Source: Cenococcum geophilum | Taxonomy: Eukaryota | Assembly: GCA_050273025.1 (NCBI GenBank) | Contig: CP158635.1 | Span: 12,586,001-12,650,000 of the forward strand | Direction of reading: 5' to 3' | DNA length: 64,000 bases | In this document: piece after piece, positions 9,623 to 48,785 of the stretch | How positions within the stretch are numbered: the stretch's first letter is position 1 | Layout: the number at the start of each line of letters is the position of its first letter | Program-made: the position numbers and the translations under genes | Notes under the pieces: model-generated | The model's database searches: none | What the model saw: the letters and a program-made list of their open reading frames with translations, nothing else | What the model was told of the DNA's origin: nothing

Positions 9623-11089
9623 AGCTTAGTTTAAAGACAAATAAATAAGTATAGGATAATAATTCCCCATACTAGAAGTATAAGAGAGACTTTTATAGAA
9701 AAGAGATAAGAACCTAAATTTAGAGTAGGTATTAATCCCTATAGAAATAGAGGATATAGCTAAAGGGCGAGGCCGCTGAGTAGATAGAAAGACTTAATAT
9801 TCTTAAAATAAGATAAGAGAAATATAAGATTCTATAGAAAGGATAAGGACGTAAATAAGCTATTTAAGAAGATAGATTAAAGCAGAAAATAAGAAAGATT
9901 TAAAATCTAATATAGGGATAGAAACTCCAGGAAAAGGTAAATAAAGTTTTTAGACTTAGGGTTAAGTAAGTAATACTAAAATTATAAAGTTTAAGGATCT
10001 AAAGAATTTGATAGCTAGATATAAACTAGAAAAAGACTAAATATAATTTAAGAATTAAATTAAAGCATGGCAAGAATAAAGGGGTTACTATAGATTAAAA
10101 ATGCTGAGTAGATTAAGGGACAAAACGCCTTTATATAAAATTATTAATAGGCCTAAGGCAGGCACGCTAAGAGTAAAGTGACTTAAAGAACTAGAATAAG
10201 AAGAGGACTTAGAGATTTTAACTAGATTGAAAAAACGGCATTTAAAGGGCTATTATAATATAGCAATAATAAGATACTTTCTTATAGATATATCGTATAC
10301 GCTTATAAAATTGTACTAAAAGTGATCTAGATAGCGATATAACAACAAATAGGAAGATTTCTATATATAGCTAAATAAAAAAGTTATCTAAGACTAAATA
10401 ATTGCTAAAAGACGCATAAGTTATATTAAAGGAGCATTAATTATAATGTTTAGAAATCCAGAAGAAAGATTATAGGACTAGAGAAGTAAAAGGTAAATTT
10501 TAGTGCTAGTAAATAAGGAACTAATATATAGATTAACTAGATAGAGGTTTAAACTTAAGAATAAAAATAAACTAAGAGTTAACCTAAAGCGTCTAGTATA
10601 TAATATATTGGCATAGATCGCATATATAGATAACTAGTATAGTATATACTAAGCACTAAAGATAAAGAATAAGAAGTACCCTATAAATATATATTAGGCG
10701 CTAAATAAACAATAATATAGGAATGCTAAGTATATATATAGCTAGCATCTAGTAGAAATCTAAGGGAAAGGAGAATTAACCCTTTAACTAGGAAGATTTC
10801 TTATAGAAGAATACTTAGGTGGATAATAGTAGTAGGAATGCCTAGAGAATACGTGTCTATAGTATATTAAGGAAAAGAAATAAACTAAGTATTAATTAAA
10901 AACGGACTAAATATAAATAGGATCTAGTAGCTAATAGTTAGGAAAATAAGAGGCCTATAGGACCTAAGGGAGCTAGTAGTAGAGCCTTAGACCCTTAAAG
11001 GAATTTAAAAACAATACCTAAATTTATAAGTTAAGTAGTAAGATTAATAGTTTAAAGTACTAATAGACAATAGAGCAATAAGGAACTAT

Positions 11090-12174
11090 CATTGGCAAAA
11101 TATTATCCTTTATTCATGGCCTTAATGGCCGGTCGTTAGCGCAATTGGCGCGTAGTTAAGGGCATTTAGCAACTCGACCGACTAGCCTATGTCGTGTTTT
11201 TTGACACGCAGCCTACGCGTAGCCTATGCGCAACCTACTGTTATAGAGTAAGTATAAGTAACAATAATATATAACGAGGTAGATATTATTAAGCTATATA
11301 CATAAACTATATAATAAGGTCAAGACGTTGCGTAAGGAAAAAAGGTAGGAAAACGGGAAGAAAGAATATACTACTTATTTATATCTACCTACCTATTAGC
11401 ATCTTTTTGCCTATCTATATTTGCTTACCAATCTATATTTGCTTACCAATCTATATTTACTTACCTATCTATATTTACTTACCTATCTATATTTACCTAT
11501 TTATCTATATTTGCCTACCTATCTATACTACCTTAATTTAATTAATTAATTAAATCGTTTATAGTATTTACTGGCTAGTTGTTATTGTCTAGCTCTAGCA
11601 ACGGTCGTCTAGTTCTAGTAATAGTCGTCTAGTTTTAGCGACGATTGTTTAGTTCTGGCAACGATTGTCTAGCGGTAGCGACAGTTATCTAGTTCTAGTA
11701 ATAGTCCTCTACTAGCTACCGTTTTAATACTTCCCTAAGCAAAAAGGATATAAAAAAGGAAGGGTAAAAAAGGGCAAAGGTATATATAGAGACTATTGGA
11801 AATATAGCGGGGACCTAATATAGAGCTTTATATAGAGCTTTATATAAGGCTTTATATAGAGCCTTTAAGTAACAAAACTATATAAGATTGTATAAGATTA
11901 TATATAACAGTTAAATATATTATAAGCTAGTATACTATAGGCTAAGAAAACAGTAAAAGTTAATTTAGGTAATTGGCATATAACTTAAAAATAATATATT
12001 ATATTACCTAAATTACATATTAAGGAATATATAGTTAACTTTTAAAGTTATTAAATTGGCTAACTACGTATTATTTAACCTTTAAATATATTAAGTTGGT
12101 TAATTGTGTATTAATACGCGAAACGCGCTAAATAAAGTCTACTTAAATCTTAGCCTGCGAATATTTCCCCAATA
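11090..12174. mobile_element. Non-autonomous TIR element (1085 bp) with internal minisatellites, inserted in the A1 protease
   Basis: Ends cattggcaaaatatt and aatatttccccaata form a 15-bp imperfect TIR. Removing the insert and one AT restores aactatatattattagcag, collinear with the uninterrupted copies near 16686 and 27430-27448. Confidence 0.75.
11410..11866. repeat. Three tandem arrays: 18-mer (ctatatttgcttaccaat) ~6x, 20-mer (ctagttctagcaacgattgt) ~6x, 12-mer (tatagagcttta) ~4x
   Basis: Read directly at ~11410-11526, ~11589-11705 and ~11818-11866. Confidence 0.85.
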
Positions 12175-12401
12175 ATATATTATTAGCAGTAGTTAAAAGG
12201 ATAGGACTACTATATAGGTAGAAAAGGCACCTATATCCGTTAGTTATAATTCTAGAAAATCTAATAGCCTATAGAGAAGGTATTATTAACCTTAAAATAG
12301 GACCTATTTAGATAACTATTAAAGGGAGACTAATTAAAATGTCTTTTAATATCCTACTATTAGGACGAGATAAGGCAGTACTAGAAATACTTTAGTTATA
12401 G

Positions 12402-12820
12402 TATTACGGACGCTTTAAGTACAATGTTATAACTACTAGGAGAGGAGTTAGAAGAAGCTAGTTGGTTAATATAGGTATAGTCTAGGATGGAACCGGTTAA
12501 GCTATATAACGAGGAATAGTAGCTAAGGTTATATAATATGCTATATATTAAACAAGAGGAACGGGAGGAACTTACGTACCTTATGTACCACGCGTATATT
12601 ATATATAAGGAGGATTTCTTAGAAGTACGGTTGTGTATTTAAAGGACTATAGTCCCTACTTAGATAGTTCTCTCCTTATAGTAAATCTTAAAATATAATT
12701 AGAGTTAATCTATTAGGCAACTACTCCACTAATTATTATTACGTTATTAACTTCTTATTTACCTATATACCCGGCCTATTAATAAGTCTACTATAGTTCC
12801 TACTACAAGGCTTCGTTATA
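12402..12820 (+). repeat. 5' LTR of A2
   Basis: tattacgg...cgttata termini. Matches the reverse complement of 30658-31077 except in the central U3 repeat zone. Confidence 0.88.
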
Positions 12821-13018
12821 TATTTACTACTAAGGTTACAGTATTAATAAAGTTAAATAATATGCCACTAAAAGTAGTAGCTACAATAGCGTTAACGGCA
12901 GCGACTACCTTAGGATTAGGTAATGATACTAGTATAGTAAACACTAACTCTTAGCTAGTTACCGTTAGATAGCTATAGGAAATAGTTAATTAATTAATAG
13001 ATAATAATAGGATATTTA

Positions 13019-13872
13019 TTATTATTGATTCTTATTTAAAGTCCGATGCGGTCCTCTTCTGAGTCCATGCAGACTATATATTGCCGTTGAGTTTTAGGTA
13101 CAAAAAACCTCCAAGGGAGACGTAAGAGGTAATACAGCATGAACCCCTCCAGGTAGCATGCCCGTACTACGTCAACGGGAGGAAAAATACCGTTAGGTCA
13201 CCGTTCTGGGACGTGGTCCCTAATTGCCTATCTTGCCCTGTCTACCTTTCGTACCATGCTTCCATTTAAGTTTATAAATACCGTAAAGTTAAGTTGTCCT
13301 ACCCTTGCTCCTTCTTACTGCCCTGTACGTGTATCTCGCCTATAGTCCTCCTGCTCCTCCTACCGCCCCATCCTTATATATCCCTTATTCCTTTCTATCT
13401 TCCTACTCTAGGCCTCTACCTAGCTTCCTAGTGGCTTCGTCCCTAGTTGGACGGGTTACATACCTTCTGCGGTTAAGGCCCAAAGATCGCTGGGTGGATT
13501 AAGGTGTAAAGGGGTAGAGGCGAGTGGAAGAGGCTCAGGCCTTCCGCCTGCGAGGTACGGTTTAGCTGCGTATAGGTGCCGTACGGTATGTATACTGTTA
13601 TACCGCATAAGAAAAAGAGGGTCGCTGCCGTATATAAATGCCGTGGTTCGAGTGTGCTCGACGTGTACGTGAAATCGTGGTAGTCGTGTTCGTAGCCCTC
13701 CGCTGGGGCTCACCCTCCCAGCAGGAAAAAAAATTTCGCACCACCACCACGACGTCGCAGCGCCGACGCTGCGCTGTCGTACGAACGTCTCTGCGTTGGC
13801 TCTGCTGAATCCGAAGACCAGCAGGTTCGTAGCCGTCACCTCGTACAGGTGCAGAGTCCGGTTTCAACGGCC
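13019..13872 (-). mobile_element. SINE-like non-autonomous retroposon with a 5' HDV-like ribozyme and a LINE-like 3' tail
   Basis: Perfect 15-bp TSD ataataggatattta at 13004-13018 and 13873-13887. (TAA)n tail on the minus strand. GC-rich island interrupting A2 gag. No credible ORF. Confidence 0.9.
13789..13872 (-). ncRNA. HDV-like (nested double pseudoknot) self-cleaving ribozyme
   Basis: Minus strand: GGCCGUU(P1) GAAACCGGA CUCUGC(P2) ACC(P3) UGUACGA(L3) GGU(P3') GACGGCU(P1') AC(P1.1') GAAC CUGCUGGUC UUCG GAUUCAGCAG(P4) AGCCAAC(J4/2) GCAGAG(P2'). G1-U wobble at the predicted cleavage site. Confidence 0.88.
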
Positions 13873-16800
13873 ATAATAGGATATTTAAAGAAAGAATTAA
13901 TGGGATTGGAGTAGCTAAGGTTAAGTTACCCTTAATTAAGCGATTCTTAGGGTAGAAGTTAAAACTTAAAGGATTCCTTATATAAATGCACTTTAAGGTT
14001 ATATAGGAAGAAGTTAAACTAGGAACGCCTATAGATTAAGTCGCTTATATAGGATTATTCTTAATAGGAAGAGTACTTAAGTGGTTTAAGCCTTACCTTA
14101 TAGAGGTATAGGAGTATAGTATAACAACCACTAACTAGGAGGTACGATATATATTCTTAAGTTAGAACGGGTTTATAAAATGCTTAACGCAGATAATTAG
14201 GGACCTAAAGGCAACTATAACGGTAGAATAAAAACTTTAAAACCTAGTATAAAGAACTTTAGCAATTAAATATATAATATAGTTTTAAATATTAGTAATA
14301 TAAGTTAAATGGAATAATAAGGCGCTTATAGCATAGTATAAATAGGGACTTATAGTAAAAGTCTAAGATATAATTATCCTAATAGAAGATACGGATACTC
14401 TTAAGGATTTAATTAATTAAGTAATTAAGATTAATAATAGGATCTACCAAAGAGAGTAGACTAAGAAGGGTTAGGATAGGGTTTTATAGTTATATAAGGC
14501 GCAAGGCATATAATAATAAAGTTAAAGTTAGAAACTATAGTATGGCGTAGAGCTAATAGACCTAAGTAGTATTAAAGAAAATAGAAAATGGAATAAACAA
14601 CTATAGAAACCTAGAGGATAAGAATTAAGTAATTAAAGGTCTAAGGAGCAGAGGCTAAATTAAGGATCTTAATAGTAGAAGACGTTTAGGCGGACTTTAT
14701 AGTAAGAAAAATGGTTTAAAGAAGGAGTTTATATAAATTACGGAAAATAGGGTTATTATATTAAAGACTATAGAAGTAGTTAGAGTTACTACGTAGTAAA
14801 AGGAATGAGACTAGTAGAAGATATATATATATAAAGGGATAATAGTATACTGCGAGGAACAAAAGAATGTTTAACTAAAAGCTTTACGTTTTGTTATAAT
14901 AACATATACTAAATTTATAAGGACGCTAAGTATGGCGTAAGCTATTAGCTATAGGAGCTAAAATTATTAAAGTTTAAAGGAACTAACAAACTAGTTTATA
15001 GATTGGATATTAAGGACGATAAGTAAAATATAAGTAAAATATTTAGTAATAATAAGGTAATAAAGGCAGCTTACTAGGAGTATATAGATTTTAGAGATAT
15101 TATATAAGAGGTAAAGAATAATTCTACTATAAAATAGGGAATATTAGTAGGGATTAAGACCCCACTAGATATAATATCTATCGCTTTATAAGACGTAAGA
15201 GAAGTAGGATAGCGAACTACTTTAGTACTTAATAAAGGCAAAAGGCTATAAGCTTAAGATTCTTAAGATAGGATATAGGACGCTTAAGGTTTCTAAGACG
15301 GGATAAGATAAGCTTAAGGACCTATAATAGACGATAACCAATAGAGCAAAGTAATAACTTAGTTTAGTAATATATAAATAAGCTTAGGACGAAGTTTCCT
15401 AAAGGTATAAGACTATTAAGACAAGATAAGTAAGATTTAAGACTCTTAAAACGAGATAAGAATACTAAAGAAGCCTAGTTAGACTAAGGCTAGAGCTAAG
15501 CTTAAGACAGAAGCAAGCTTAGGATTAAGAATTCTATAGGACTAAGATTTTTAGATATAAATAAAGACTATTAAATAAACTAAGATTAAGAAGTAAGAAG
15601 ACTTTAAGGATCTACTTATAAGGCGAAAACCAAAAGAAACTAAAGAGGAATTTAGATAGAGAATCCTTATATAGTAAGAACAAAAACTAGATTAAAGGAC
15701 TAGTATACTAGGTTGTATAAGGGATAGAGCACCTATATAAAGAATTACTAATAGGCCTAGGGCAGGTATGCTAAGAGCTAAGTGGCTTACTAAACTAGAA
15801 AATAAAGAGGATTTAGGAATTCTAACTAGGTTTAAGGAATAATATATAAAAGGCTATTATAATATAGTAATAAAAAGATACTTCCTTACGGATAAGCCGT
15901 ATATACTCTAATAGCTGTACTAAAAGTGATATAGGTAATAATATAACGATAAGTAAGAAGATTTCTATATATAGTTGGATGAAAGAGTTATCTAGGACTA
16001 CCCTATTATAGAGAAGGCTATAACTTATATTAAGAGAGCCTTAATTATAACATTAAAGGATCTAAAGGAATAATTAGAGGACTAAAGAAGTAAGAAATAT
16101 ATCTTAGTACTTATAAACAAAGTTATAACATTTAGATTAACACGGTAGAGGTTTAAACTTAAAGATAAAAATAAGTTAAGAGTTAACCTAAAGCACCTAG
16201 TATATTATATATTGGCATAGATTATATATAGATAATATATACAAAATATATAAAAACCTAAAAGAGAAAAATCGGAAGTACCCTATAAGGATATATTAGG
16301 CGCCAGATAAGTAATAGTATAAAAATATTAAGTATATGCATAGATGGCATCTAGTAGAAGTTTAGGAGTTAGGAGACTTAATACTTTAACTAAAAAGATT
16401 TCTTATAGAAGAATAGTTAGATAGATAATAGTAGTAGGAATACCTAGAGAATACGTGTCTATAGTATATAGAGGACAAAAAGCGAACTAGGTATTAGCTA
16501 AAGAGTAAGCTAAGTATATAAGGATTAAACAGCTAATAGTTAGGAAAAGTAAAGGCCTATGGGACTAAAGGGAACTAGTAGTAAAGCCTTAGACCTTTAA
16601 AGGAATTTAAGGACAATACCTAAATTTATAAGTTAATTAGTAAAATTAGCAGTTTAAAGTACTAATAGATAGTAAAGTAATGCGGAACTATATCTTACTA
16701 GTAGTAGTAAAAAAAATAAGATTACCTTATAGATAGAAGGAATAACCTTATTTATTAGTTATAATTTTAGGAGATCTAATAGCCTATAGAGGAGGTATTA

Positions 16801-18381
16801 TTAACCTTAAAATAGGACCTATTTAAATAACTATTAAAGGGAGACAAGTTAAGATGTCTTTTAATATCCTACAATTGGGATAGGATAAGGTAGTATTAGG
16901 CATACCTTGATTACAGGAATATAATTTAAAGATTAATTAAATTATAGGGTAGGTCGATATTAGAGATATATAATAACATAAAATATAATAATAGACTAAG
17001 TTAGTATAGTATTAAATCGGAGTAATATATAAAGAGACTAAGCGAGGCTTAAGTTATATACTAAAAAGATACTATAAGTGTGGCAAGAAACTATAGAGCC
17101 TAAAAAGTAAAAAGCTGGCAGATTATATAGTATAGGACTATAAAATAGAGTTAGAACTAGGAATAAGTCTAAAATTCTTTTTAACCTATAAGCTTACCTA
17201 AGAGGAGTTAAGAGCACTTAAAGAGATTACCTAAGAGAACTTATAAAAGGGATATATTAGACTATTATAGTTATTAGTAGGATATCTAGTATTGTTCGTA
17301 CTAAAGAAGAACGGAAAACTTAGGCTATATATTAACTATAGATAGTTAACATTACTTAAAAGAATAGGTATTCTTTACCCTTAATTAGCGAAATTTAGAA
17401 TTAGATAGATAATGCGTAAATCTTTATAAAGATAGATCTAAGATAGGCGTACTATTACATTAGAATTAAGAAAGGCAATAAATAGAAAGCAGCCTTTAGG
17501 TTAAAAGAAGGACTATATAAACTATTAGTAATGCAGTTTAGGTTAATAAATACACTAGTAACGTTTTAAAAACAAATTAATAGTGTATTAGGAGAACACC
17601 TTAATAAGTTTATTATAGTATACCTTAACGATATTATTATCTACTTAATAACTAAGGAAGAGTATAAAGAACACATTAAATAGGTCTTAAAGAGACTATA
17701 AAAAGAACAGATACTAGTAGTAATTAAAAAATATAAGTTCTTTATTAGGAAGACCGATTTTATTAAATTTATTATTAAACTAGGTTATATTAGTATAGAC
17801 CTAAAGAAGATTAAAGCTATAGTAAGTTAGTAAGAACTAGAGAATATAACGCAGTTAAGGTTATTTTTAGGGGGTTGCAACTACTATAGAAGGTTTATAG
17901 CATAGTAGTTAAAGAATATTAAACCATTTACTAGGCTTACTAAAAAGGAGGAACTATAGATATAGGGAAATAAATAAAAGAAGTTATTTAAGGAACTTAA
18001 GGAGTTATTTATCTAAGAACTAATTTTTAAAATCTATTAACTAATATTAGAAGCGGTTATAGAAACGGATATATTAGACTTTATATTAGGAGTATACTTA
18101 CTATAGAAATATTATAATATATAGCACCTAATAATATACTATAGTTAAAAGATAACACTACTAGAACTAAACTATAACATCTATAATAAGGAGGTATTAG
18201 GTATAATTATAGTATTTAAAGAATAGGAAAACTATTTATAATTAAGATAGATTATAAAAACCTAGTGGAGTTCCTAATAATAAAAGAACTTAATTATAGA
18301 TAGGTTAGATAGGTAGAGATACTTATAGAATACTATTTTATAATTTAGTATACTAAAGGAATAGAAAATATAAGGGTAAAC

Positions 18382-18623
18382 TGTTACGGAAGTAGGTATA
18401 AGCTAGAATACAATATACTAAACGGCGTAGTAATTAAAGAAGGCTATGTACGCGTAATTATATATAATTAATATAAAGACATTTAGATATAGAAACAGAA
18501 TAGGTTAGGTATAGGTATAAATAAGGATTATAAAAAAACGTGTATAGGTATTACGGGACGAATATAAGTATAGGTTAAATATTAAAACACATAGGGACGT
18601 AAGAACGGGCAAGTCCCGTAATA
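18382..18623 (-). repeat. 3' LTR of a minus-strand gypsy-type element; no partner LTR in the window
   Basis: tgttacgg...ccgtaata terminal inverted repeat, followed by a pyrimidine tract (PPT on the minus strand) at 18624-18642. Confidence 0.7.
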
Positions 18624-23584: not shown

Positions 23585-24290
23585 ATATCGTTGCTTATAA
23601 TACCTAAAGTACCTTCTTTTTCTTTAACCCTTTGTTATACGCGTACAGTTTCTTCTATACTATCGCTTAGTGAAGTAATACTATCTCTATACTCTTATTA
23701 CGCGAAAGAGGGGTTAGTCTATATTACGTTAGTAAGTCCTTTATCTTAATAACCTTCTTTTTATTTAGAGTGCACTAAAGCAAATATTTAATTATCTTGT
23801 AATATTCGCTTAATTTCTAACGCTAAGTATACGCGTCCTATAACTCTTAATAGTCTTTAAGTTCCCTAAGTAATTTATTATAGGGTCTCGTGTTTAATTT
23901 ACTGCTATAAAGCTTAATAATAAACTATCCGTTGCCTTAGCGGAACTTTATTATTTACGTAATGCTAAGAAAGAGGCGGCTAATGCTTAATAACGGGTTC
24001 TTAATTCTCGTCTTGCTGCGTCCACTTAGTTAATTTATCTTAAGAGAGTTTATAAGAAGGTTTATTTTAAGGAGTAGAAACTTATAGAATAAGGTTTATA
24101 GGAACTTAGTAATAAAAGAACAGATTCTCTTCTAACAGAGAAGAAAACAACTCTAAGTAATTCGGCAGTCGCTCTTCTTAGGTCCCCCTTAGGTGACTTA
24201 TTCTTTAGCAATTCTTTATTAATATTACCTAACCTTTTCTCTTCTAATACTCCTGTACCTTTCCTATAGCGTTCTTTAGGTTCTCTAGTA
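23585..24290 (+). pseudogene. Antisense accessory gene of family A: Zn(II)2Cys6-like domain plus predicted coiled coil, one probable intron
   Basis: Restored PCSRCAKEGLVC-x13-CSECTKANVRSSC at ~23686-23800. Two Cys codons are intact and four read TAC/TAT. The same spacing occurs in copy A4 (~37670-37790, minus). Ends approximate. Confidence 0.6.
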
Positions 24291-27200
24291 GCTCCTAGGT
24301 AGTCTTGTTATAGCCTATCTACTTTACTTCGTACTATATTTTATCGTCTACGTCCTTATAGCTAATAATCTTTAAAACTTACTATTTGTCTTCCTCTTAT
24401 CCTCTATATATATCTGCTTTATAAACCAGTGGCTTAATATTCCTATATACTAGCTCTAGTATTACAATATACTATATAGGGTAGATCTTTATCCTAGCTA
24501 ATAGGTTTAACTTAAATATAACTAATAAAATTTTCTATATAATTTTAAAAGGTCCTAGTCTAACGTAGTCTAACTTCTTACTTAGTCGTTAACTCTTAAA
24601 ATTTTTGTATAATAGCTATACTTTATCTCCCTCCTTAAGATCTAGTCCCTTAGATCTCTTAGTATTATAATACCTTTTTATCTTTTGCTATACTACCTTA
24701 GCTGTTTCCGTAAGGTTTGCATAAAGATTTATTAAACTCTCTATTCTTTACTTAGCTATATTACTTATCTTCTTTACTTAACGTAGCAATAATAAGGTCC
24801 TTAGCTTATATCTATAATTCGCCTTAAATAGTAACGTGCCTATTCCTTCTTATAGTGTTGCATTGTATATAAACTATATAACTAGTAATAGCGATACCTA
24901 ATTATTTTATATATAATTAATATAATGCCTTAGATACTGCTCTAGTATCTAGTTTAATTTTTCCGTGTAACCATTTATCTATAAATAATATACGGTAAAA
25001 GTTACTGCTTAAACTCCTTACTCTGCTAAGAATACTTTCTAAAATGCTGCTATAAATCTTAGATCCCTATCTAATATAATCTTATTTAGTGCTCTATATC
25101 TTATAAATACTTCTTTAATATAGATTCTAGCGATATCTTTTACTAATATTTCTTTTATATATGCTATAAAGTATCCCCACTTTATAAGCTTATCTACTAT
25201 TACTAAAATCGCGTTATAATTTTATCCGGTAATAGGATCTCTTAACTTTAGTAACTTAATAATAAAGTCCCATAATATAACTTCCTATAGTCTCCCTAGT
25301 ATTTTAATAGGTTATAGCCCTTCGTATAGCTTATACCTTGTTAGTTTATTCCTTTAGTAATCTAGATATTCTTTTATAACTTATCTAGCTAGTCCCTAGA
25401 TTCTATTAATAATATACTCCTCTTAGAGTCTTAACACTAAGCCTATATCTCCGTTATGTCCTTAAGTTAGTCCCTTATAAAATGACTTAATAAACTCCTT
25501 TATAATAGTTCTTAGTACGTATATTGCTTTTTAATTCTTATACTACTCTAAGTCTAGATCCTCTACCTATACATTTTAGATCTTTTATATCTAATTACTC
25601 TCTAGTAAATTATAGATCTTTTCTTCTTATATTGCTGTAATTTTTAGATAATTATATCTAATTAATCCGTCTATATCTTTTCGCAATAAAGCCCCTAATG
25701 GCTTTTTATTATTCTATAGTTTAGTCTTTCTACTTAGAGCATCTGCTCGTGCATTTTCCGTACCCTTAGTATACTAAATCTTAAAATAGTATTCTATAAG
25801 CATCTCTACCTATCTAACCTATCTCTAATTAAGTTCTTTTATTATTAGGAACCCCGTTAGGTTTTTATAATCCATTTTAATTATAAATGGTTTTTCTATA
25901 CCTTATAAGAATAATTTCTATTTCTTTAATACTATAACTATACCTAATAACTCCTTATTATAGATATTATAGTTTAGTTCTAGTAGTGTTATTTTTTAAC
26001 TATAGTATGCCACTAGGTGCTATCCATTTTTATATTTTTATAAAAAGCACGCTCCTAGTATATAGTCTAATATATCCGTTTTAACTACTGTCTCTAACTA
26101 TAGTTAATAGATTTTAAGAACTAGCTCCTAGGTAAATAACTATTTAATCCTTTTAAATAGTTCCTTTTATTCCTCCCCCTATACCTATAGTTCTTCTTTC
26201 TTTATTAATCTTATAAGTGGCTTAATATCCTTTAACCATTAAGCTATAAACCTTCTATAGTAGTTACAGAACCCTAGAAATAACCTTAACTATATTACGT
26301 TTTCTAGTTCTTACTAATTTACTATAGCCTTAATCTTCTTTAGATCTATACTAAGTTAGCCTAGTTTAATAATAAATCTAACAAAATCTGTTTTCCTGGT
26401 AAAGAATTTGCATTTCTTAATTACTACTAGCATCTATTCTTCCTATAGTCCCTTTAAGACCCATTTAACGTGTTCTCTATATTCTTCCTTATTTATTAAG
26501 TAGATAATAATATTATTAAAATATACCATAACAAATTCATCCAAGTATTCTTTTAATATATTGTTAATACGCTTCTAAAACGTTACTAGTGCGTTTATAA
26601 GCCTAAATTATATAACTAGTGGTTTATATAGTCCTTCTTTTAACCTAAAGGCTGCCTTCTATTTATCGCCTTCCTTAATTCTAATCTAATAGTATACCTA
26701 TCTTAGATTTATCTTTATAAAGATTTGCGCATTACTAATCCTATTTTAGATTTTGCTAATTAAGGGTAAAGAATACCTATCCTTCCTAGTGATGTTGTTT
26801 AACTATCTATAGTTAATATATAGCCTAAGTTTTCCATTCTTCTTTAGTACGAATAGTACTAGATATCCCGCTAATAACTACAATAGTCTAATATATCCCT
26901 TTTAAAGATTTTTCTAAATAAACTCCTTAAGTGCCTATAACTCCTTTTCTATTAACTTATAGGTCAGGTAGAACCTTAGACTTATTTCTAGTTCTAATTT
27001 TATCTTATAGTCCTATACTATATATTCTAATAGCTTTTCACTTTCTAGTGACTATAACTTTTTGCCATATTTATAGTATTTCTTTAGTATATAACTTAAT
27101 CCTTAATTGGTCTCCTTATATATCGCTCTAACTTAGTACTATACTAACTTAGTTTGTTATTATATATCTCTAATATTGACTTAACCTATAACCTAATTAA

Positions 27201-30200
27201 TCTTTAGATTATATTTCTATAACTAAGGCATTCCTAATACTGCCTTATTATTCCCTAATAGTAATATATTAAAAGACATCTTAACTTATCTCCCTTTAAT
27301 GGTTATCTAAATTAGTTCTATTTTAAGATTAATAATACCTCCTCCGTAGGCTATTAGATCTCCTAAAATCGTTACTAATAAATAAGGGTGCTCTTTTTGC
27401 CTATATAGTAGCCCTATCCTTTTAACTACTGCTAGTAAAATATAGTTTCTTATTGCTTTACTGTCTACTAATGCTTTAAACTGTTAATCTTACCATTTAA
27501 CTCTTAGATTTAGGTGTTGTCCTTAAATTCCTTTAAGGGTTTAAGGCTCTACTATTGGCTCCCTCTAGTCCTATAGGCCTCTACTTTTCCTAACTATTAG
27601 CTGCTTAATCCTATTACACTTAGCTTATTCTTTAGCCAATACTTAATTTGCTTTTTATCTTTAATATACTATAGATAGGTATTTTCTAGATATTCCTACT
27701 ATTGTTATTTATCTAAGCATTCTTCTATAAGGAATCTTCCTAGTTAAAGTATTAAACCTCCTTCCTTTTAGACTTCTGCTAGATACCATCCGTGCATATA
27801 TTTGGCATTTTTGTACTATTGTTTATTTATTATCCAGTATATCCTTATAAGGTATTTCCAATTCTTTTCCTTCGGATTCTTGTGTATTTTGTATATATTA
27901 TCTACGCATATAATCTATAATAGCGTATAGTATGCCGGGTGCTTTAGGTTAACTTTTAACTCGTCTCTATCCTTAAGTTTAAACCTCTATCGCACTAATC
28001 TAAACGTTACGACTTTATTTATAGGTATTAAGACGCGTCTCTTACTTCTTTAGTCCTCTAATTGTTCCTCTAGATCCTTTAATATTATAATTAAGGCTCC
28101 CTTAATATAATTTATTGCTTTTTCCGTAATTAGGTAGTTTTAGATAACTTTTTTGTCTAACTATATATAGAAATCTTCCTATTTATTATTATGTCGTTGT
28201 CTATACCACTTTTAGTATAGCTATTAGAGTATATATAGTCTATCCATAAGGAAGTATCTTCTTATTACTATATTATAATAGCCTTTTATATATCGTTCTT
28301 TGAACCTAGTAGGAATCCTTAAATCCTCTTTATTTTTTAATTTAGTAAGCTACTTAGCTTTTAGTATGCCTATTCTCGGCCTATTAGTGATTTTTTATAC
28401 TAGCGCTCTATCCTTTATATGGCCTAGTGTACTAGATCTCGCGTCTAGTTTCTTTTCTTACTATAAGGTAATTCTTACTCTAAATTCCTCTATGGTTTCT
28501 TTCTTTTCGCGTCTTATAAGTAGATCCTTAAAGTCTTCTTACTTCTTAATCTTAGTATTAAACTCTTAATCTTTAGTTTAAATATCTTGTTTAACTAATA
28601 AGTCCTCTAGGTCTATGTATCTGTCTCCTAATCTAACTACTATTTATATTATAGATTCTCTAATCTATAGCGAAGCCGCTTACTTCTTACTTATAGGTGT
28701 TCTTATTTATACTTTAAACTCTTAACCCCTTAGATCCTTTAATCCTAAGCTTACTTCTTTCTTAAGCTACGCTCTAGCCTTAGTCTAACTAGGCTTTACT
28801 GGTGTTTTTATCTCGTCTTAAGAGTCTTAAATCTCACTTATCTTATCTTAAGAATCTTATGCCGTTGGGAATACTTATCCCGAGCTTATTTGTATATTTT
28901 TAAACTAAGCCGCTGCCCTACTCTATCGGTTTATGTCCGTTATAGGTCCTTAAGCATACCTTATCTCATTTTAAGAATCTTAGTCGTCTCTTATCTTATC
29001 TTAAAAATCTTAAGCCTTTGGCCTTTTGCCTTTATTAAGTGGTAAGCTAGCACTAGCAGTTACCTGCTTGCTTAATCGTCTCTAGATATTACTCCTTCCG
29101 TCTTATAAAGTGATAGATGCCATATTTAACGGTGTTATAATACCCGTTACTAAACCTTACTTTATGGCGGTCTTAGTCTCTACTTTTATTGCGTTATTAA
29201 GGTTTAGATACCCCTAGTTAGTTCCTTTACTATCCTTATCGCTGTTAATTAATAAGTACTTTAACTTTATTATTATTGTTGCTAATTATAATCTATATAT
29301 TGCTATAATATCTTAATCTAGCTTATAGAGTCGATCTTATTCTTTATTTAACTCTTTAGTTCCTTTAAATCCTTTTAACTCTAGCTCCTATAGCTAATAG
29401 CTTATACCGTACTTAGCGTCTTTATAAATTTAGTATATATTATTATAATAAAACGCAAAACTTTTAATTAAACATTCTTTTGTTCCTTATAGTATACTAT
29501 TATTCCTCTATACATATATGTTATATACTATTAGTCTAGTTTCCTTTACTATATAATAACTCTAACCACTTTTATAGTCTCTGGCGTAATAACCCTATTT
29601 TCCGTAATTTATGCGGGCTCTATTTTTAAACTATTACTTTTGCTATAGAGTCCGCTTAAACGTCTTTCGCTGTTAAGATCCTTAGTTTAGCCTATACTCC
29701 TTAGTCCTATAATTACTTAATTCTTAACTTTTAGGTTTTTATAGTTGCTTTCCCTATCTCTTATAGGTTTCTCTAGTATTACTTAGGTCTATTAGCTCTG
29801 CACCATACTATAGTTTTTAACTTAGCTTTGGTTATTGCGTACTCTACATCTTATATAACTATAGAACTCTATCCTAGCCTCTCTTAGCCTATTCCCTTTA
29901 GAAGATCCTATTGTTAATCTTAATCGCTTAATCTATTAATTCCCTTAGGGTATCCACATCTTCTATTAGAATAATTACGTCCTAGACTTTAGCCTTAAGT
30001 CCCTATTTATACTGTGCCATAAGCGCCTTATTATTCCATTTAACCTATATAGTAAGTATTTAAAACTACGTTATATACTTAATTACTAAAGTTCGCTATA
30101 TTAGGTCCTAAAGCTTTCTCTTTACTATAGTTATTACTTTTAGGTCCCCAAATATCTATATTAATTATTTTATAAATCCTACCTAGCTAGAAAACATAAA

Positions 30201-30617
30201 TCGTACCTCTTAATTGGTAGTAGTTATTCCGTTAGTCTATATTTCCATTAGGTAGGGTTTAAACCATTTAAGTGCCTAACCTGCTAAGAATAGTCCCGCA
30301 TAGGCTATCTGATCTATTATTGTGGCTAACTTGGCCCCTTCTTATATAACTTTAAAATGCATTTACGTTAGGAATCCTTTAAGCTTTAATCTCTCCCCTA
30401 AGAATTGTTTAATTAAAGGTAACTTAACCTTTACTGCTCCGATCCTATTAAGTCTTTCTTTAAGTATTTAGTTGTTCTCGTTTAACCTATTAACAATTTC
30501 CTATAACTACCCAACTGTAACTGGTTGTAAGTTAGTGTCTTATATACTTATATCTCTACTTAACCTTAAAGTGGTTGCTGCCGTTAACGGTATTATAGTG
30601 GCTGCTTTTAGTGGCAT
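24200..30617 (-). pseudogene. pol: gag-pol pseudogene of A3 (gag, PR, RT, RH, IN, chromodomain)
   Basis: Collinear with A2 and A4. Restored chromodomain WYEVKWTGYDETTWEPLENLKNA at ~24268-24340. Dense RIP stops. Confidence 0.88.
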
Positions 30618-30657
30618 ATTATTTGACTTATTAAAACCGTAACTGTGGTAGTAATTG

Positions 30658-33632: not shown

Positions 33633-36600
33633 TTACCTAATAAAAAGAAAAGAATTAGAAGTACCCAATAAGGATATATTAGGCGCTAGATAAGTAATAG
33701 TATAGAAATACAAAGTATATACACAGCTAGCATTTAGTAAAAGTTTAGGAGTTAAATAACTTAACGCTTTAACTAGGAAGATTCCTTATAGAAGAATACT
33801 TAAATAAATAATAATAGTAGGAGTGCCTAGAGAATACGTGTCTATAGTATATTAAGGATAAGAAATAAACTAGGTATTAGCTAAAGAGTAAGCTAAGTAT
33901 ATAAGGATCTAGCAGCTAATAATTAGGAAAAGTGAAGGCCTATAGAACTAAAGGGAGCTAGTAGTAGAGCCTTAAACCCTTAAAGGAATTTAAGGACAAC
34001 ACTTAAATTTACGAGTTAATTAGTAAAATTAACAGTTAAAAGTATTAATAGATAGTAGAGTAAAAAGGATGGGGCTACTATATAGGCAAAAGAAGTACCT
34101 TTATTTATTAGTTACGATTTTAGGAGATCTAATAGCCTATAGAGAAGGCATTATTAATCTTAAAACAGGACCTATTTAGATAACCATTAAAGGAAGATTA
34201 ATTAAGATATCTTTTAATATCCTACTATTAGGATGGGATGAGGTAGTATTATAAATACCTTAGTTATAGGAATATAATCTAAAAATCGACTAGGTTATAA
34301 TTTAGGTTAATATTAAGAATACTTAACAACGTAAAAGGCGTATAGCTACTAAGTTAGTATAGTACTAGGTTAGAGCAACCTATAAAGAAATTAAAAAGGG
34401 GTTAAGTTATATACTAAAGAGATACTATAAGTATGGCAAGAAACTATAAAGCCTAGAAAGTAAAAAGCTATTAAAGTATATAGCATAGGACTATAAAATA
34501 GAATTAGAACTAGGAATAAGTCTAAAGTTCTTTCTAATCTACAAGCTAACTAAAGAAGAGTTAAGAGCACTTAAGGAGTTTATCTAGGAAAACCTACGAA
34601 AAGGATATATTAAACTATTATAATTATTAATAGGTTATCCGGTACTATTTATACTAAAGAAAAATAGAAAGCTTAGATTATATATTACTATAGGTAGTTA
34701 AACAGCATTACTAGAAAGGATAGATATCTTTTACCCTTAATTAGTAAAATCTAAGATAGGATAGGTAATACGCAAATCTTTATAAAGATAGATCTAAGAT
34801 AGGCGTACTATTAAATTAGGATTAAGGAAGGCAATAAATAAAAAGCAGCCTTTAGGCTAAAGGAAGGACTATACAAACTATTAGTTATGCAATTTAAACT
34901 TATAAATGCATTAGTAATATTCTAAAAGCGAATTAATAATGTATTAGGAGAATACTTAGATAAATTTGTTATAGTATACCTTTATAGTATTATTATCTAC
35001 TTAATAAGTAAGAAAGAGCACGGAGAACATATTAAATAGGTTTTAAAGAGACTATAAGAAGAACAAATACTAGTAGTAATTGAGAAATACGAGTTCTTTA
35101 TAAAGAAGACTAATTTTATTAAATTTATTATTAAACTAGGTTATATTAATACAGACTTAAAGAAAATAGAAACTATAGTAAGTTGGTAAGAACTAGAGAA
35201 TATCATATAGTTAAGGTTATTTTTAGGGGTTTATAACTACTACAAAAGGTTTATAATATAGTGGTTAAAGAATATTAAGCCATTTACAAGGCTTACAAAG
35301 AAAGAGAAACTATAGGTATAGGGAAATAAGTAAAGGAAGCTATTTTAAGAACTTAAGGAGTTATTTACCTAGAAATTAATCCTTAAAATCTACTAACTAG
35401 GCTTAGAGACGGTTATAGAAATGGATATATTAGACTTTATACTAGGAGTATATTTGCTATAGAAGTATAAGAATGCATAGCACCTAGTAGCATACTATAA
35501 TTAGAAGATAATACTACCGGAACTAAACTATAACATATACAATAAGGAGTTATTAGGTGTGGTTATAGTATTTAGGAAATAGAGAGCATTTTTATAAGGT
35601 ATAAAGAAACTATTTATAGTTAAAATAGATTATAAGAACCTAATAGGGTTTTTAATAATAAAAGAACTTAACCGGAGATAAGTTAAATAGGCAGAGATGC
35701 TTATAGAATACTATTTTAAGATTTAGCATTTTAGAGGAATAGAGAATGCGAGAGCTAACGCGCTAAGTAGAAAAGCCAAACCACAGAATAATAAGAAGCT
35801 ATTAAGAGCAATGCTACGTAAAGATAAGGATATATTAATTAGATGTAATTACCTAAAGCTAGTAGCAACTTATAAATTACTAAAAAGTAATTAGACTAAA
35901 AGAATTTAAGAAGCGTAAAAAGAGAATATAGACTTAGAGTAGTATGAAAATAGAGAAGCAATATATATACTAAGAAGTATTATAAAAGAATTTATAAAGG
36001 AATTCTATTAGGGAATAATATAGGGATATAATAGAGCTACAGGCTTAATATTAAGACTTTAGGAGGATTATATTGTTAATAAAATCTAGGGCTTAGTAAG
36101 AGAAGTTATAAAGAAGTATCTAGATTGCTAAAGAAATAAACTAACGAGGTATAAACTATATAGAAAGCTATAGCCTATTAAAATACTGGAAAGACTATAG
36201 GAAGTTATATTATAGGACTTTTTTTATAAAGTTACTGAAATTAAAGGATCCTATTACCGGATAGGAATATAATATAATCCTTATAATAGTAAATAAGTTA
36301 ACTAAATAGGGCTACTTTATAGCATATATAGAAGAAATCTTAGTGGGGGATATCGCTAAAATCTATATAAAAGAAGTATTCGTAAGACATAGAGCACTAA
36401 GTGAGATTATATTAGACAAAGATTTAAGATTTATAGTAGTATTTTAGGAGGTATTTTTAGCGGAATAAGGGGCTCGCGTAGTAATATTAATAGTATATTA
36501 TCCATAAACGGATAGATAGATAGAAAGATTAAACTAGACACTAGAGCAGTATCTAAAGCAGTATGTTAATTATATATAGAATAATTAAGTATTTTTATTA

Positions 36601-37823
36601 TTAGTTATATAGTTTGTATATAATACGACACAATAAAAAGGTATAGAGATATTACTATTTTAGGCGAATTATGGGTATAAGCCTAGAATATCGCCGTTAC
36701 CGCAATAAGCGAAGAAATTAAGCAGTATAGCGAAGTAAAGAATAGAGATATTAATAAATCTTTATAAGGACCTCTATAGTATAGTAAAGTTAGTATAAAA
36801 AAAGATAAAAAAGTACTATAATACCAAAAGATCTAAGGGACTAGATCTAAAGGAGGGAGACAAAGTATAGCTACTATATAAAAAATTAGATTATGTTAGG
36901 CTAGGACTATTTAAAATTATAGCTAAGATTTTAGAAGTTATGTATAGACTTAACTTACTAACGAAAATAAAAATTTATCTAGTATAGTATATTATAATAC
37001 TAAAACTAGTATATAGAGACGTAAAGCTATTAGTCTATAAAGCAGATATATATAGAGGATAAGCAGAAGATAAATAGTAAGTTTTAAAAACTATTAGTTA
37101 TAAGGATATTAATAATAAAACGTAGTATAAAGTAAAGTGGATAGGCTATAATAAGACTACTTAAGAACTACTATAGAACCTAAAGAAAGCTATAGGAAAG
37201 GTATAGGAGTATTAAAAGAAAACGGGTTATATAATATTATAAAGGAGCTAAAGGTAAAAGGATTAGTTAAAGGCGATAGATAAGCCAGACTATTTAAGGG
37301 ATCTACTACTAACGTATAAGTTATTTCCGCCTCTTCTTAATTGGAATCCTTTTTAGCCTCCCTAGCTTTAAGTTCTACTAAATCTTATTTAGTAAAGTGC
37401 AACTCCTTTAAGCGTACTTTTTCATAACCCTTTTTAAGACGGAGTAATTAAGTACGCGTAGCTAGTTAAGCTTTAAATACTTTCTGCTCTTTAGCATAAA
37501 TCTACTTACTGTTATCTTGGAGCTTTTATACCTTAGCTAGGGCTATAGCCAACTTACCCTTAAGATAGGAGGCAGTAGATTAAATATAAGACCCTATAGC
37601 AAATTAAATAAGGTATATAATAATTATAGAGAATTATAAAACGCGTATACTTAGTATTAGATACGGATTAAATATTATAGAATAATTATATATTTGCTTA
37701 TATATACTTAGTATAAAAAGAAGGTTAGTAACTAGATAGAGCCGTAATTGTAATATATATTAACTTTTTCTCCGTATACTAGGAATAGGATGGTATAACT
37801 TTACTCTATTAAAAAAGAAAATA
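33633..37823 (+). mobile_element. Gypsy family A copy A4: internal fragment from late gag through pol, chromodomain and antisense gene
   Basis: Collinear with A2 (from ~16260) and with the reverse complement of A3. No LTRs. The 3' end is hit by the LINE. Confidence 0.85.
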
Positions 37824-39888
37824 ATAATTTATTGCTTAACGTCCGATTTAAATCCCTATTGGGCCCATGTGGACTACTCCTTAGGTATATATAAGGAGAA
37901 AACTCTATTTAAGAAAACCCCATAATCTATCTCCCCGCCTTTTAGGACTCGCCTATAAGGCGCCTACAAGTTACCTATAGTGCTCCTACTACCTTACTTT
38001 TTAACCTCTTTAGGAACTACTGCTACTGCAATAAGCCTACGGACGCGCTAGTATTATAAACTTTACTTTACTACTATAGAGTTATTAGGGGGCGCTCGTT
38101 GCTTACCCCCCCGCCCTTTATTACTATTTCCTTTATAACCCAGAACTAGTTTAGTATATTTTAGCTAATAAGCTACTAGGTAACCGCCTTAAGGCCTTTT
38201 TATATTATGAGTAGTGTCTTATAGTTCTCTATACCAGCTACTAAAAGTATTACTTCTTAGTTAGTGCGTAAGGGGCATAATAGTATTATATATTTTAGTG
38301 TCTGTCTTCGCCAGCTATATTTATATCTTAGGCTACCTACTAAAACACCTACCCAGTAGAGCTAGTCTTTTAGTCCTATTATTCCTGTTCTTAAGAGTGT
38401 TGCTATTATATTTTCTACCTTTATTAGGCCTTCTTAGAGCCCTAAAGTGTTTACGCCCTATAGCGTTAACTATGCTATAGCTTAGGTTCCTCTTACCTTA
38501 GTTAGCCTCTATACCTTTAACTCCTATATACCTTTTTAGCGTTAGTTTAGCTAGTATTATATTGCGGTAGATAGTTTCCCAGTGTTCTTTTATGCTCTAC
38601 TTTAGCTCCTTTCTCTCTCTTACTATTATCTTTACTAGCCTCTTATACGTCTCCCTTCCTCCTCTATATAGGCCTAGGCCCTAAAGCAGTACTATTTTTC
38701 TTCTGCTTTCTTTACCTATTTCTTTAATATATCTTCCCTACTTTAGGGTTATTAGTTTATTCTCCTATAAGGCGCCCTAGGGTCCCTCCATAGTTTATTT
38801 AGGCGTATCTTAATATACTTTATAACGTTAGAGTTACGTTTCTTTTACGCCCTTTATATTGCAGCGGCTTTAATATATAGTTATAGGGGGGGAATATTAG
38901 CTTCCTTCTTAAGCAGTACTGTGGCCGTTCGCTTATATCCGCCTATTATACTCTAAAGGCAGGCTATTTAGACCTTTTAAAGTGGTTTAAGGAGCGATTT
39001 AGGGGGGCCTTTCTTAGATTCTCTAATGGCCTAAATACTAGACTTATACGTTATAGTTGGCCGGACGACTGCTATATATAGTAGGCGTAACCTCTAAAAG
39101 CATAGACCCTATATAGGGTTAACGATCCTAGATAATATAATATATTATACTTAGCCCTTACGGGCCGCTTGTGTTATATATACACTCTACTAGAGCTTAC
39201 TGTCTACCTATACTCCTAATACTTTTAGGCCTTAAACTGGTTAACCCCTAAAGCCTTAGATATAAATTATATACTAAAGATCTACAGATTAGTTACGTTT
39301 TCTTATAAAATAGATTAGCTGGTATTTCTCTGGTAAGAATTAGACTCTATATTGTCTTATTTATTCTATATAGGTATTATAAGCTTTCTCTAGTGTTTTA
39401 CAATTCTCTACGGCTATTAGCCCGTATATAATTAGGTTTATATTATTAACAAAGCCTATTCCCTAAGTCGCCCCTTCCTTAAAGAAGTTAAGCAGGTTGC
39501 TTATAAAGAAAAGGAAAAGTATAGGTAAGAGGGGTGATCTCTATAGTATTCCTATTGTAACTATAATAGGGGGGCTTTAGTATCCGCTAAAGACTAATAT
39601 TTTTTTTTTTAACCTATAAACCTTTAAATAAATTATATAATCTATTCTTGTCAGAAATTGGCGTTAAGGGTGCTGACTAAGCTCTGTACGCGAACTCTGT
39701 ATACAATCTACATAGACATTAACCGCATCTACTGCATCACGAATCAATCAATATTCATCGTCTGCGTCATCTCTATCATCAATTAAACCCTCAAGAGACC
39801 TCCGCTATGACCTTATAACCTTATAATTCCAACAGGTTATAAGCCTGGGTAGCAACACCTCTCCTAACTCAAAAAATCGACGCTCCAA

Positions 39889-48230: not shown

Positions 48231-48785
48231 CCGTCGTTTGACGTATACCTTCCCTACAATGTATTTATCTTAGGGGGATTCTCTAGGTGTTTTTCAGGGT
48301 TCTTTTAGTTGGTTTTAGTCTTTTTAGGCTAGGTGCAGCAAGAGCTCCTTTTTCCAGTTCTAAGCATAGTATTATTACTAAATCTTACTACTTAAAAAAG
48401 AAAATAGAGATTTAACTACCGGTTTTGGAGGGTTCTGTTACCGTTTTTAGAGGTTATATTATTAAAACTCCCCGCCGCCCTAAGCCTCTTGCTTGCCGGT
48501 CTAACGTTAAGCCTCTTACTTACCGCCCTATGCCCTTGCTTTTTAATAGGTAGACTATAATCCTTCTATATACCTAGCGCTAAGGCTATATATACTCTAT
48601 AGCTCCTACCTCTAATCCGTTTAATTTAGGCCCTATTTCTCTTATTCTCTACCCTCCTACCTCCTTAACCTACATTGCTCTTTAGATCCTTCCCGCTGTT
48701 ATTACCCTCTAGGTCCCTCCCACCATTACTACCCTCTAGGTCCCTTTTGCTATTACTACCCTAAGTTCTCTTCTAGCTCCTTAGA

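Follow-up and report, generated by a model that had tools for sequence, protein, structure and literature searches.

Non-coding retroposons with a predicted HDV-like ribozyme head and a LINE-shared 3′ end: a family found from one copy in Cenococcum geophilum

The stretch of DNA analyzed here, referred to as the window, comprises 64,000 nt of the fungus Cenococcum geophilum (GCA_050273025.1, contig CP158635.1, positions 12,586,001-12,650,000); window coordinates are used throughout. At 13019-13872 it carries a short retroposon without open reading frames (ORFs), inserted on the minus strand into AT-rich repeat debris that has been degraded by repeat-induced point mutation (RIP). [quoted passage not shown] In our view, the element probably belongs to a large family of non-coding retroposons, 0.8-1.0 kb long, LINE-dependent, and ribozyme-headed, in which three modules are joined.

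The element is bounded by perfect 15-bp duplications of ATAATAGGATATTTA. Its tail lies on the minus strand and runs into the TAA-starting duplication; the sense RNA is therefore the minus strand, with its 5′ end at 13872. With the element ending in CAATAATAA and the adjoining duplication starting with TAA, the tail is (TAA)2-3. Near 30461-30467, a paralog of the host repeat, diverged from it, continues across the site without a break and holds one target copy only (alignment A1), and one contig from a DNA run links 13003 to 13873, with 15 letters common to both sides. This is therefore a true insertion with a true target-site duplication. The length, the duplication, and the tail had been read from the letters alone in the original prediction, and the 15/15 identity, the tail count, and the empty-site paralog bear all three out. 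No ATG ORF longer than 56 aa occurs in the element, and its two stop-to-stop ORFs (135 and 145 aa) have no Pfam match at E ≤ 1, in line with the earlier claim that it holds no RT or endonuclease remnant (RT, reverse transcriptase). Only two stop-to-stop ORFs in the 64-kb window reach 110 aa, and both overlap the element.

The GC content of the element is 0.508, against 0.30 and 0.29 in its 2-kb flanks. The surroundings are RIP-degraded AT-rich repeat debris, with TpA/ApT ratios of 1.55-1.71 and (CpA+TpG)/(ApC+GpT) ratios of 0.28-0.49. An un-mutated copy amid such heavily degraded DNA suggests that the insertion postdates the last RIP episode there. Within the 64-kb window the element is single-copy: neither blastn nor a RIP-degenerate motif search found a further copy, and a motif match at 9915 proved on inspection to be a chance match.

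Relatives of the element are abundant elsewhere. Using a core pattern of 28 nt (RNA nt 17-44) to scan metagenome contigs, we recovered at least 122 stretches with related heads. In addition, at least half of the element's sampled words are present in 20 of the 24 public runs listed (14 studies); these 20 runs are labeled with three coded organisms and "fungus metagenome". The element is thus neither a single-copy sequence nor a one-off internal deletion of a LINE, given that it belongs to a family and that the LINE with which it shares its tail has no ribozyme at its 5′ end in three copies. In one DNA run (X6), 2,719 contigs match the region, in many variants. Summed depth in this run is 76,000-90,000 over the head bins (13806-13883) and 190-1,200 over the interior (13299-13688). 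Thus, the head is common to many more elements than the window-type body. Many of the stretches recovered with the core pattern sit on contigs that are tens of kb long and carry ordinary fungal genes as well, including those for a polyketide synthase, ribonucleotide reductase, and NACHT/ankyrin proteins.

Among the matches listed, copies begin at the predicted cleavage site (G1) and have unrelated flanks. Over 121 distinct 5′ junctions in this set, the frequency of the top base is 0.32-0.47 at positions −5 to −1 and 0.95-1.0 at +1 to +7. Exact duplications of 11-19 bp flank 37 of these copies (15 bp in 14 copies, 14 bp in another 14), with TA as the first two letters in 28 cases; the elements so delimited are 824-1032 bp long. 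Copies are mostly full length, since 51 of the 58 matches that reach the reference 3′ end start within its first 100 nt. Duplications of variable length, a simple-repeat tail, the lack of terminal repeats and of any ORF, and many unrelated flanks are the marks of a non-autonomous retroposon inserted by target-primed reverse transcription (TPRT), and all of them are present here.

We find that the body is far less widely shared than the two ends. Only 2 of 124 heads among the matches listed (L020 and L060) are followed by a body like that of the window copy, at 81-83% identity; the others have only the first 89-137 nt and the 3′ end in common with it. The subfamilies therefore differ in the middle. 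Conservation of the head extends to about nt 135, some 50 nt beyond the 84-nt ribozyme, and the tails of relatives are (TAC)n, (TTA)n, or (TAA)n. One apparently long element of 3.9 kb (L056, 4669-8587) turned out to be a member of about 1 kb with a 2.9-kb AT-rich insert nested between element nt 203 and 230. Two head copies with internal deletions probably represent dead ribozymes: in one (L007:308-403) the sequence is replaced from P4 onward, and in the other (L048:11862-11942) the stretch from P1′ to P4 is deleted.

The original prediction named a ribozyme without giving its structure; RNA nt 1-84 of the window copy can be drawn, by hand and then by descriptor, as a canonical HDV-type nested double pseudoknot. 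Our strict descriptor specifies a P1 of 7 bp, a P2 of at least 5 bp, a P3 of 3 Watson-Crick bp, an L3 of 6-9 nt, a P4 of at least 4 bp, a P1.1 of two pairs, both Watson-Crick and involving L3 positions 2 and 3, and a C four nt before P2′. Applied to both strands of the window, it gave three matches, one of which starts exactly at 13872. The other two, at 37710 and 7439, are AT-rich and within shuffle expectation (0-6 matches in ten dinucleotide shuffles of the window) and were discarded. In 400 composition-matched shuffles of the element, the descriptor found nothing in 317,600 start positions. Thus, a match at the first base of the insertion is not due to chance. We liken C75 of the head to the catalytic C75 of HDV, and we take this residue and the G1-U42 pair at the cleavage site to be catalytic by analogy with HDV. 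Judged by the predicted fold and the universal 5′ end, self-cleavage would occur 5′ of G1.

Two types of HDV-class ribozyme are published from fungi: Li & Breaker (2017, PMC5640933) report 230 variant and 11 canonical examples, credit the latter to Webb et al. (2009), and describe cleavage in vitro for two. In their published account, the variant pairs C with G at the cleavage site, has part of P4 replaced by an E-loop, and carries one additional nucleotide between P2 and P3. By these published features the window head is set apart, as it has a G-U pair at the cleavage site, a plain P4 hairpin with a regular UUCG loop, and a P2 that abuts P3. On its predicted structure, the head is therefore of the canonical HDV type and not of the Li & Breaker variant type.

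Over 90 distinct heads among the matches listed, 98% of P1, P2, P3, and P1.1 cells are paired, a figure of little weight because half of the columns are fixed by the scan pattern. P1 cells are paired in 96% and P2 cells in 98.5%; the P3 and P1.1 columns are invariant by construction of the pattern. Of the 90 heads, 87 retain G-U at the cleavage site and two have A-U instead. At position 7, most relatives have C7, in a C-G pair, where the window copy has U7, in a U-G pair. Single changes in the core are mostly tolerated ones. When more divergent heads were sought, only four extra heads, RIP-mutated, were found in the loci.

P4, which the scan pattern left unconstrained, is informative. The 88 of these 90 heads that could be parsed contain 55 distinct P4 sequences, all but four of which fold into a hairpin, in about six architectures of 14-29 nt. 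Exchanges of C-G to G-C and of G-C to A-U occur between CUGCUG/CAGCAG, CUGGGU/ACCCAG, CUGGAU/AUCCAG, and CUGAGU/ACUCAG. RIP acting on both arms of the stem could mimic the double changes from G:C to A:U; it cannot mimic the transversion swaps.

The family appears to be transcribed. In a run on record as metatranscriptomic RNA (X1), contigs without a single difference tile 13098-13814. The RIP-degraded flanks serve as an internal silent control, with a depth of 0-3.7 in X1 and of 7,000-770,000 in DNA run X6. One X1 contig of 598 nt consists of 510 nt of unrelated upstream sequence followed by the head, as would a read-through precursor. Raw stranded reads from a related organism, 90-95% alike (run X23), cover only the head and a 3′ module, and on the head their strand bias is 454 to 17. 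Upstream of the region of similarity, the X23 sequence has a diverged P1-like stretch and then further conserved sequence, and in that organism the head may form part of a longer transcript that is itself conserved. In the RNA-type runs X1 and X2, no contigs match the last ~78 nt of the window copy (13019-13097); depth in X6 is only subfamily-level there, and other copies branch off at 13094-13098.

The other end of the element leads to a LINE. In L011, about 2 kb downstream of a frame riddled by RIP, the conserved 3′ motif occurs in a copy that has no head. LINE frames were translated with read-through, placing an X at each stop, and those of L011 and L024 match Pfam RVT_1, a reverse transcriptase (RT) domain (E = 6.4e-13, with 49.3 bits where the cutoff is 29.6, and E = 2.4e-14, respectively). 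Searches with tblastn, again with read-through, found further LINE copies in L024, L022, and L042 and in the window. Pfam searches of the read-through frames for LINE endonuclease and RNase H domains gave no match. Copy-to-copy blastn shows that the LINE is about 5.6 kb long with a common 5′ boundary (sense position 480 in L024, near 7862 in L042, and 48353-48355 in the window). In the window copy, the 3′ end consists of the shared module and an (ATT)n-like tail, and an insertion of about 5 kb (39670-44646) splits this copy.

Homology between the LINE and the short elements covers their last 60-115 nt (blastn, alignment A4). Against the 3′ end of the L024 LINE, the short element of L037 is 86.8% identical over 68 nt (E = 2e-15), that of L017 is 74.8% identical over 115 nt (E = 3e-13), and the window copy is 67.8% identical over 59 nt (E = 0.005). 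The 3′ module contains a predicted hairpin, GUCUG (13070-13074) with CGGAC (13041-13045), whose shared form is GUCUG...C(A/G)GAC. A supposed species-specific match of CGGAC/CAGAC between LINE and short-element tails is contradicted by alignment A4.

At its 5′ end, where it begins GGAAAAAGGAGCUCUUGCUGCACCUGG..., the LINE is unlike the short elements. At E ≤ 0.05, blastn finds no similarity between this end and the head; Rfam has no match to it, and no strict descriptor match was found in the three copies that reach it, all of them RIP-affected. A relaxed descriptor found nothing on the RIP-corrected three-copy consensus; the short-element head gives 14 solutions under the same descriptor, and one or more were obtained with 12 of 300 shuffles. 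A similarity seen by eye between the LINE's 5′ untranslated region and nt 85-200 of the short element is not supported by blastn. Because the LINE with the matching tail has a different, ribozyme-less 5′ end in three copies, the short elements are, as far as these alignments go, composites of the tail of a ~5.6-kb LINE and a ribozyme head not traced to any LINE.

An autonomous LINE with the same ribozyme head had been named as something to look for. None was found in about 0.73 Mb, that is, the window plus 664 kb of loci, and none of the 124 heads among the matches listed has LINE sequence or an RT ORF attached. Downstream of heads, 18 ORFs of at least 150 aa were listed, without a Pfam scan in that listing. 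For ORFs of at least 200 aa in the loci, the Pfam scan covered 17 of 22, all of which are ordinary fungal genes or have no match; the five outside the scan are L074:2511-3422-, L014:3546-4319-, L014:9425-10057+, L014:527-1156+, and L019:1924-2550-.

Table 1. Coordinates of the retroposon, its predicted ribozyme, and associated features in the window
Feature	Position	Strand	Details and evidence
Non-autonomous retroposon copy	13019-13872	-	854 bp, ORF-less; perfect duplications and empty-site paralog
Target-site duplication, 5′-side copy (sense of element)	13873-13887	.	15-mer ATAATAGGATATTTA
Target-site duplication, 3′-side copy	13004-13018	.	ATAATAGGATATTTA, 15/15 identical to other copy
(TAA)n tail	13019-13027	-	minus strand ends ..CAATAATAA, directly followed by duplication beginning TAA
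3′ module	13031-13119	-	common to other subfamilies and LINE 3′ end; alignments A3, A4
T8 run	13726-13733	-	sense RNA nt 140-147; A8 on plus strand; length varies in relatives, T4 in L017
Predicted HDV-like self-cleaving ribozyme	13789-13872	-	RNA nt 1-84; strict descriptor anchored at nt 1; predicted cleavage 5′ of G1 (13872)
P1	13866-13872 with 13831-13837	-	RNA 1-7 (GGCCGUU) / 36-42 (GACGGCU); G1-U42 wobble at cleavage site
J1/2			RNA 8-16
P2	13851-13856 with 13789-13794	-	RNA 17-22 (CUCUGC) / 79-84 (GCAGAG); sequence and descriptor
P3	13838-13850	-	RNA 23-25 / 33-35 (ACC/GGU); encloses 7-nt L3 (RNA 26-32)
P1.1	L3 positions 2, 3 with 13829-13830	-	G27-C44, U28-A43; sequence and descriptor
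P4 hairpin	13802-13824	-	RNA 49-71 (CUGCUGGUC-UUCG-GAUUCAGCAG); RNAfold -9.6 kcal/mol
J4/2	13795-13801	-	RNA 72-78 (AGCCAAC); candidate catalytic C75 at 13798, three nt between it and P2′
Empty-site paralog	30390-30540	-	diverged host-repeat copy without insertion; inverted repeats I6 and I22 abut at 30461-30467
LINE copy, 3′ part	37830-39669	-	RT aa 223-600 tblastn 69% at 39609-38476; blastn; 3′ sequence and A4
LINE copy, 5′ part	44647-48355	-	blastn to L024, L042; RT aa 2-212 tblastn 73% at 45274-44642

We propose the following mechanism. The 5′ module comprises the predicted canonical HDV-like ribozyme (nt 1-84) and about 50 further conserved nt; the body is a variable non-coding stretch, different between subfamilies; and the 3′ module, made up of ~60-115 nt and a trinucleotide-repeat tail, shares homology with the 3′ end of the ~5.6-kb RT-encoding LINE. 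A transcript would enter the element from upstream, presumably by read-through of RNA polymerase II (Pol II), with an internal promoter as the alternative. The ribozyme would then cut just 5′ of G1, so that all daughter RNAs would have one and the same 5′ end in the absence of an internal promoter for RNA polymerase III (Pol III). Homology at the 3′ end suggests that the RT of the LINE would recognize the shared hairpin and tail and so mobilize the short elements. TPRT at AT-rich, mostly TA-starting sites would leave duplications of 13-15 bp, and these products are observed. The original prediction was that any transcript crossing the element would release a unit-length RNA. This prediction covers half of what is needed, since the ribozyme-shaped 5′ module could set only the 5′ end of such an RNA; its 3′ end would be the ~60-115-nt module shared with the LINE.

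Several observations count against a mobile family with an active ribozyme at its head. Rfam models of the HDV family do not match the window copy or L017 even at E ≤ 10, a miss that is expected, since pseudoknots are beyond what such models can represent. Without pseudoknots, nt 1-88 have an ordinary minimum free energy (z = −0.94), and 32 of 200 shuffles fold as well. In the core helices there are no double changes in 18 pairs, with half of the columns pattern-fixed and the copies close relatives. The strict descriptor is passed by only 84 of 122 heads among the matches listed; we provisionally attribute the failures to RIP-type changes or odd P4 forms. The window copy's own 3′ match to the LINE is weak, and the stronger ones come from sister subfamilies. 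At the RNA level, none of the X23 reads starts at G1, similarity to the window copy stops at 13860, and 91 reads continue from there into one consistent upstream sequence (agreement 0.87). These RNAs look uncleaved, or else come from a differently built relative. The X1 data are contigs, in which RNA ends are not resolvable. Finally, the transcription of dispersed copies in silent, RIP-degraded DNA is left unexplained.

How the RNA begins is the point on which two other explanations turn. Fungal short interspersed nuclear elements (SINEs) of ~0.5-1.1 kb with A and B boxes exist, so that the element could be a true Pol III SINE with an unrecognized promoter, and it does contain one B-box-like 11-mer with one mismatch (13824-13834). 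This 11-mer is the only one in the element, lies antisense, and is at chance frequency (4 in the window against 2.94 expected). With consensus strings for the boxes, no A box with up to one mismatch was found in the element on either strand. ARAGORN finds no tRNA in the 64-kb window, and Rfam gives no match there at gathering score, with only three irrelevant sub-threshold matches at E ≤ 10 in 12800-14100. The element thus lacks recognizable similarity to tRNA, 5S, 7SL, or snRNA, and the kind of head that defines a SINE in the strict sense, derived from one of these and carrying an internal Pol III promoter, was not found in it. The T8 run at nt 140-147, and runs of T4-T5 in relatives, would stop Pol III early. 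The absence of a tRNA- or 5S-like head and of A and B boxes, and the T8 run ~140 nt from the 5′ end (A8 on the plus strand), had both been noted at the outset and are confirmed by these scans. On these sequence features, the element is apparently independent of Pol III, and a concealed Pol III promoter is hardly credible. The shared 5′ end could also be the start site of an internal Pol II promoter in the style of the I-factor and jockey or of Pr77 of L1Tc, with the HDV-like fold incidental or a back-up. Conservation well past the 84-nt ribozyme, to about nt 135, would fit such a promoter, as would a partner LINE that evidently works without a ribozyme. Moreover, well over 100 dispersed copies are hard to sustain by read-through alone, and L1Tc is described as having promoter and ribozyme in the same 77 nt (PMC3383444). 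An incidental fold is difficult to reconcile with a full descriptor match at nt 1 that is not reached in the shuffled positions, with P4 pairing kept through changes of length and sequence, and with P1 and P2 cells that stay paired despite RIP; the 510 nt of upstream sequence in the RNA-library contig also point away from a start at G1. We therefore regard a promoter at the 5′ end as the explanation of its uniformity as quite improbable.

The remaining alternative concerns the origin of the head. An ordinary short internally deleted element (SIDE), or "bipartite non-autonomous LINE", would have taken head and tail from a single autonomous ribozyme-bearing LINE that lies outside the DNA examined. 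Non-autonomous elements with a ribozyme head usually arise in this way, as described for R2 SIDEs (PMC3414825) and for RTE, Ingi, and R2 bipartite elements (PMC5786205). Only ~0.73 Mb was examined, every LINE copy seen is RIP-degraded, and more distant RT remnants exist whose 5′ ends lie outside the loci. One of these (L013:437-1906, plus strand) is 42% identical to the partner LINE RT over 490 aa, and its 5′ end lies beyond the start of the contig. The evidence from the LINE itself runs the other way: its common 5′ end differs from the head in 3 of 3 copies reaching it and fails the blastn, descriptor, and Rfam comparisons described above, and no head among the matches listed continues into LINE sequence or an RT ORF. 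Taken as a test of whether both ends come from autonomous LINEs, the tail is traceable, and the head is absent from the one LINE family readable at its 5′ end (three RIP-affected copies in ~0.73 Mb). An ordinary SIDE is thus unlikely, though less so than an internal Pol II promoter. A composite origin of the ribozyme-headed elements would mean a third kind of SINE head in a filamentous-fungus lineage, namely, an HDV-like ribozyme that does not come from the ribozyme-less partner LINE and that was fused to the LINE's 3′ recognition module, giving rise to a promoter-less dispersed family of hundreds of copies. We put this broader interpretation forward tentatively, as a real possibility short of an even chance.

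A parallel with SIDEs had been drawn in the original prediction. It is apt, and the closest precedent is the R2/R1 hybrid SIDEs of Drosophila, in which an R2 ribozyme stands directly upstream of an R1 3′ end, the R1 machinery is used, and duplications are 14 bp (Eickbush & Eickbush 2012, PMC3414825). As published, these hybrids resemble the fungal elements in being non-coding with an HDV-like 5′ end, in the absence of Pol III transcription (for the window element, judged from sequence features), and in having a 3′ end from a LINE that does not supply the ribozyme, with mobilization presumed to occur by 3′-end recognition. Their 14-bp duplications compare with mostly 14-15 bp in the fungal family. 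Unlike the fungal family, the hybrids are described only from the R1 site in 28S ribosomal DNA (rDNA), where they are co-transcribed by RNA polymerase I; the fungal elements are dispersed at AT-rich sites in well over 100 copies. The hybrids have R2 as ribozyme donor, whereas none has been traced for the fungal family, and their cleavage is reported in vitro, whereas that of the fungal ribozyme is predicted.

Similarities extend to R2 SIDEs, to NARTc/SIDER of the L1Tc/ingi clade, and to RTE-type bipartite elements, which are likewise described as short and ORF-less, with a ribozyme-bearing 5′ end, a LINE 3′ end, and machinery supplied in trans (PMC3414825, PMC5786205, PMC6765202, PMC3185411, PMC4035085). 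In these accounts both ends derive from one LINE by internal deletion; in contrast, the LINE that shares the fungal tail has an unrelated, ribozyme-free 5′ end in three copies. The fungal elements also resemble classical stringent-type SINEs in their composite build of head, body, and LINE-derived tail and in their mostly full-length copies. Classical SINEs are mobilized via a 3′ end shared with a LINE in such stringent-type LINE/SINE pairs. Unlike them, the fungal elements have a ribozyme in place of a Pol III small-RNA gene as head, and a trinucleotide-repeat tail. They are better called dispersed, composite SIDE-like retroposons than SINEs.

HDV-class ribozymes themselves are already published from fungi. 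They are described as many-copy in ascomycete genomes, with "widely variable gene associations", and their function was left open when they were cataloged (PMC5640933). The main text of that paper contains no word beginning with "transpos", "retrotransposon", or "repetitive". We found no fungal ribozyme-headed retroposon in the full-text literature searched (Repbase and Dfam lay outside this comparison). Within that literature, the link between ribozymes and retroposons in fungi appears to be new.

Ribozyme-terminated retroposons are known from settings of guaranteed co-transcription: fly rDNA and the polycistronic units of trypanosomes. The family described here is dispersed, high-copy, and apparently recently active, and its host is a RIP-competent fungus; this raises the question of how promoter-less elements are transcribed at random sites, and also whether retroposons can acquire a ribozyme as a head module that stands by itself. 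The family would give fungal HDV-class ribozymes a concrete role, the definition of the 5′ end of a retroposon RNA. If the ribozyme is a third kind of SINE head, many "orphan" fungal HDV ribozymes may be heads of such retroposons. In addition, the ~1-kb element and the ~5.6-kb LINE would form a compact natural pair for stringent 3′-end recognition. Lacking both a protein signature and one of Pol III, elements of this kind may sit among unclassified repeats in genome annotations.

Other features of the window belong to its repeat landscape. The host repeat into which the element is inserted has at least three diverged copies, 73-89% identical and in direct and inverted orientation, at 10100-18400, 24200-30630, and 33640-37250. 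Tandem arrays occur in AT-rich DNA at 1416-1753 and 11372-11547, with periods of 8 nt (28 registers listed) and 18 nt (7 registers). The insert that splits the LINE (39649-44646, ~5.0 kb) is bounded by direct repeats of 186 nt (39649-39834 and 44461-44646, 96% identity) and is less AT-rich, with a GC content of 0.37-0.42; it looks like an element of the long terminal repeat type. The window LINE has a possible 13-nt duplication, TTTTCTTTTTTAA, located 36 nt upstream of the 5′ boundary that the LINE family has in common, which suggests that this copy carries 36 extra 5′ nt, gained by 5′ transduction or untemplated addition.

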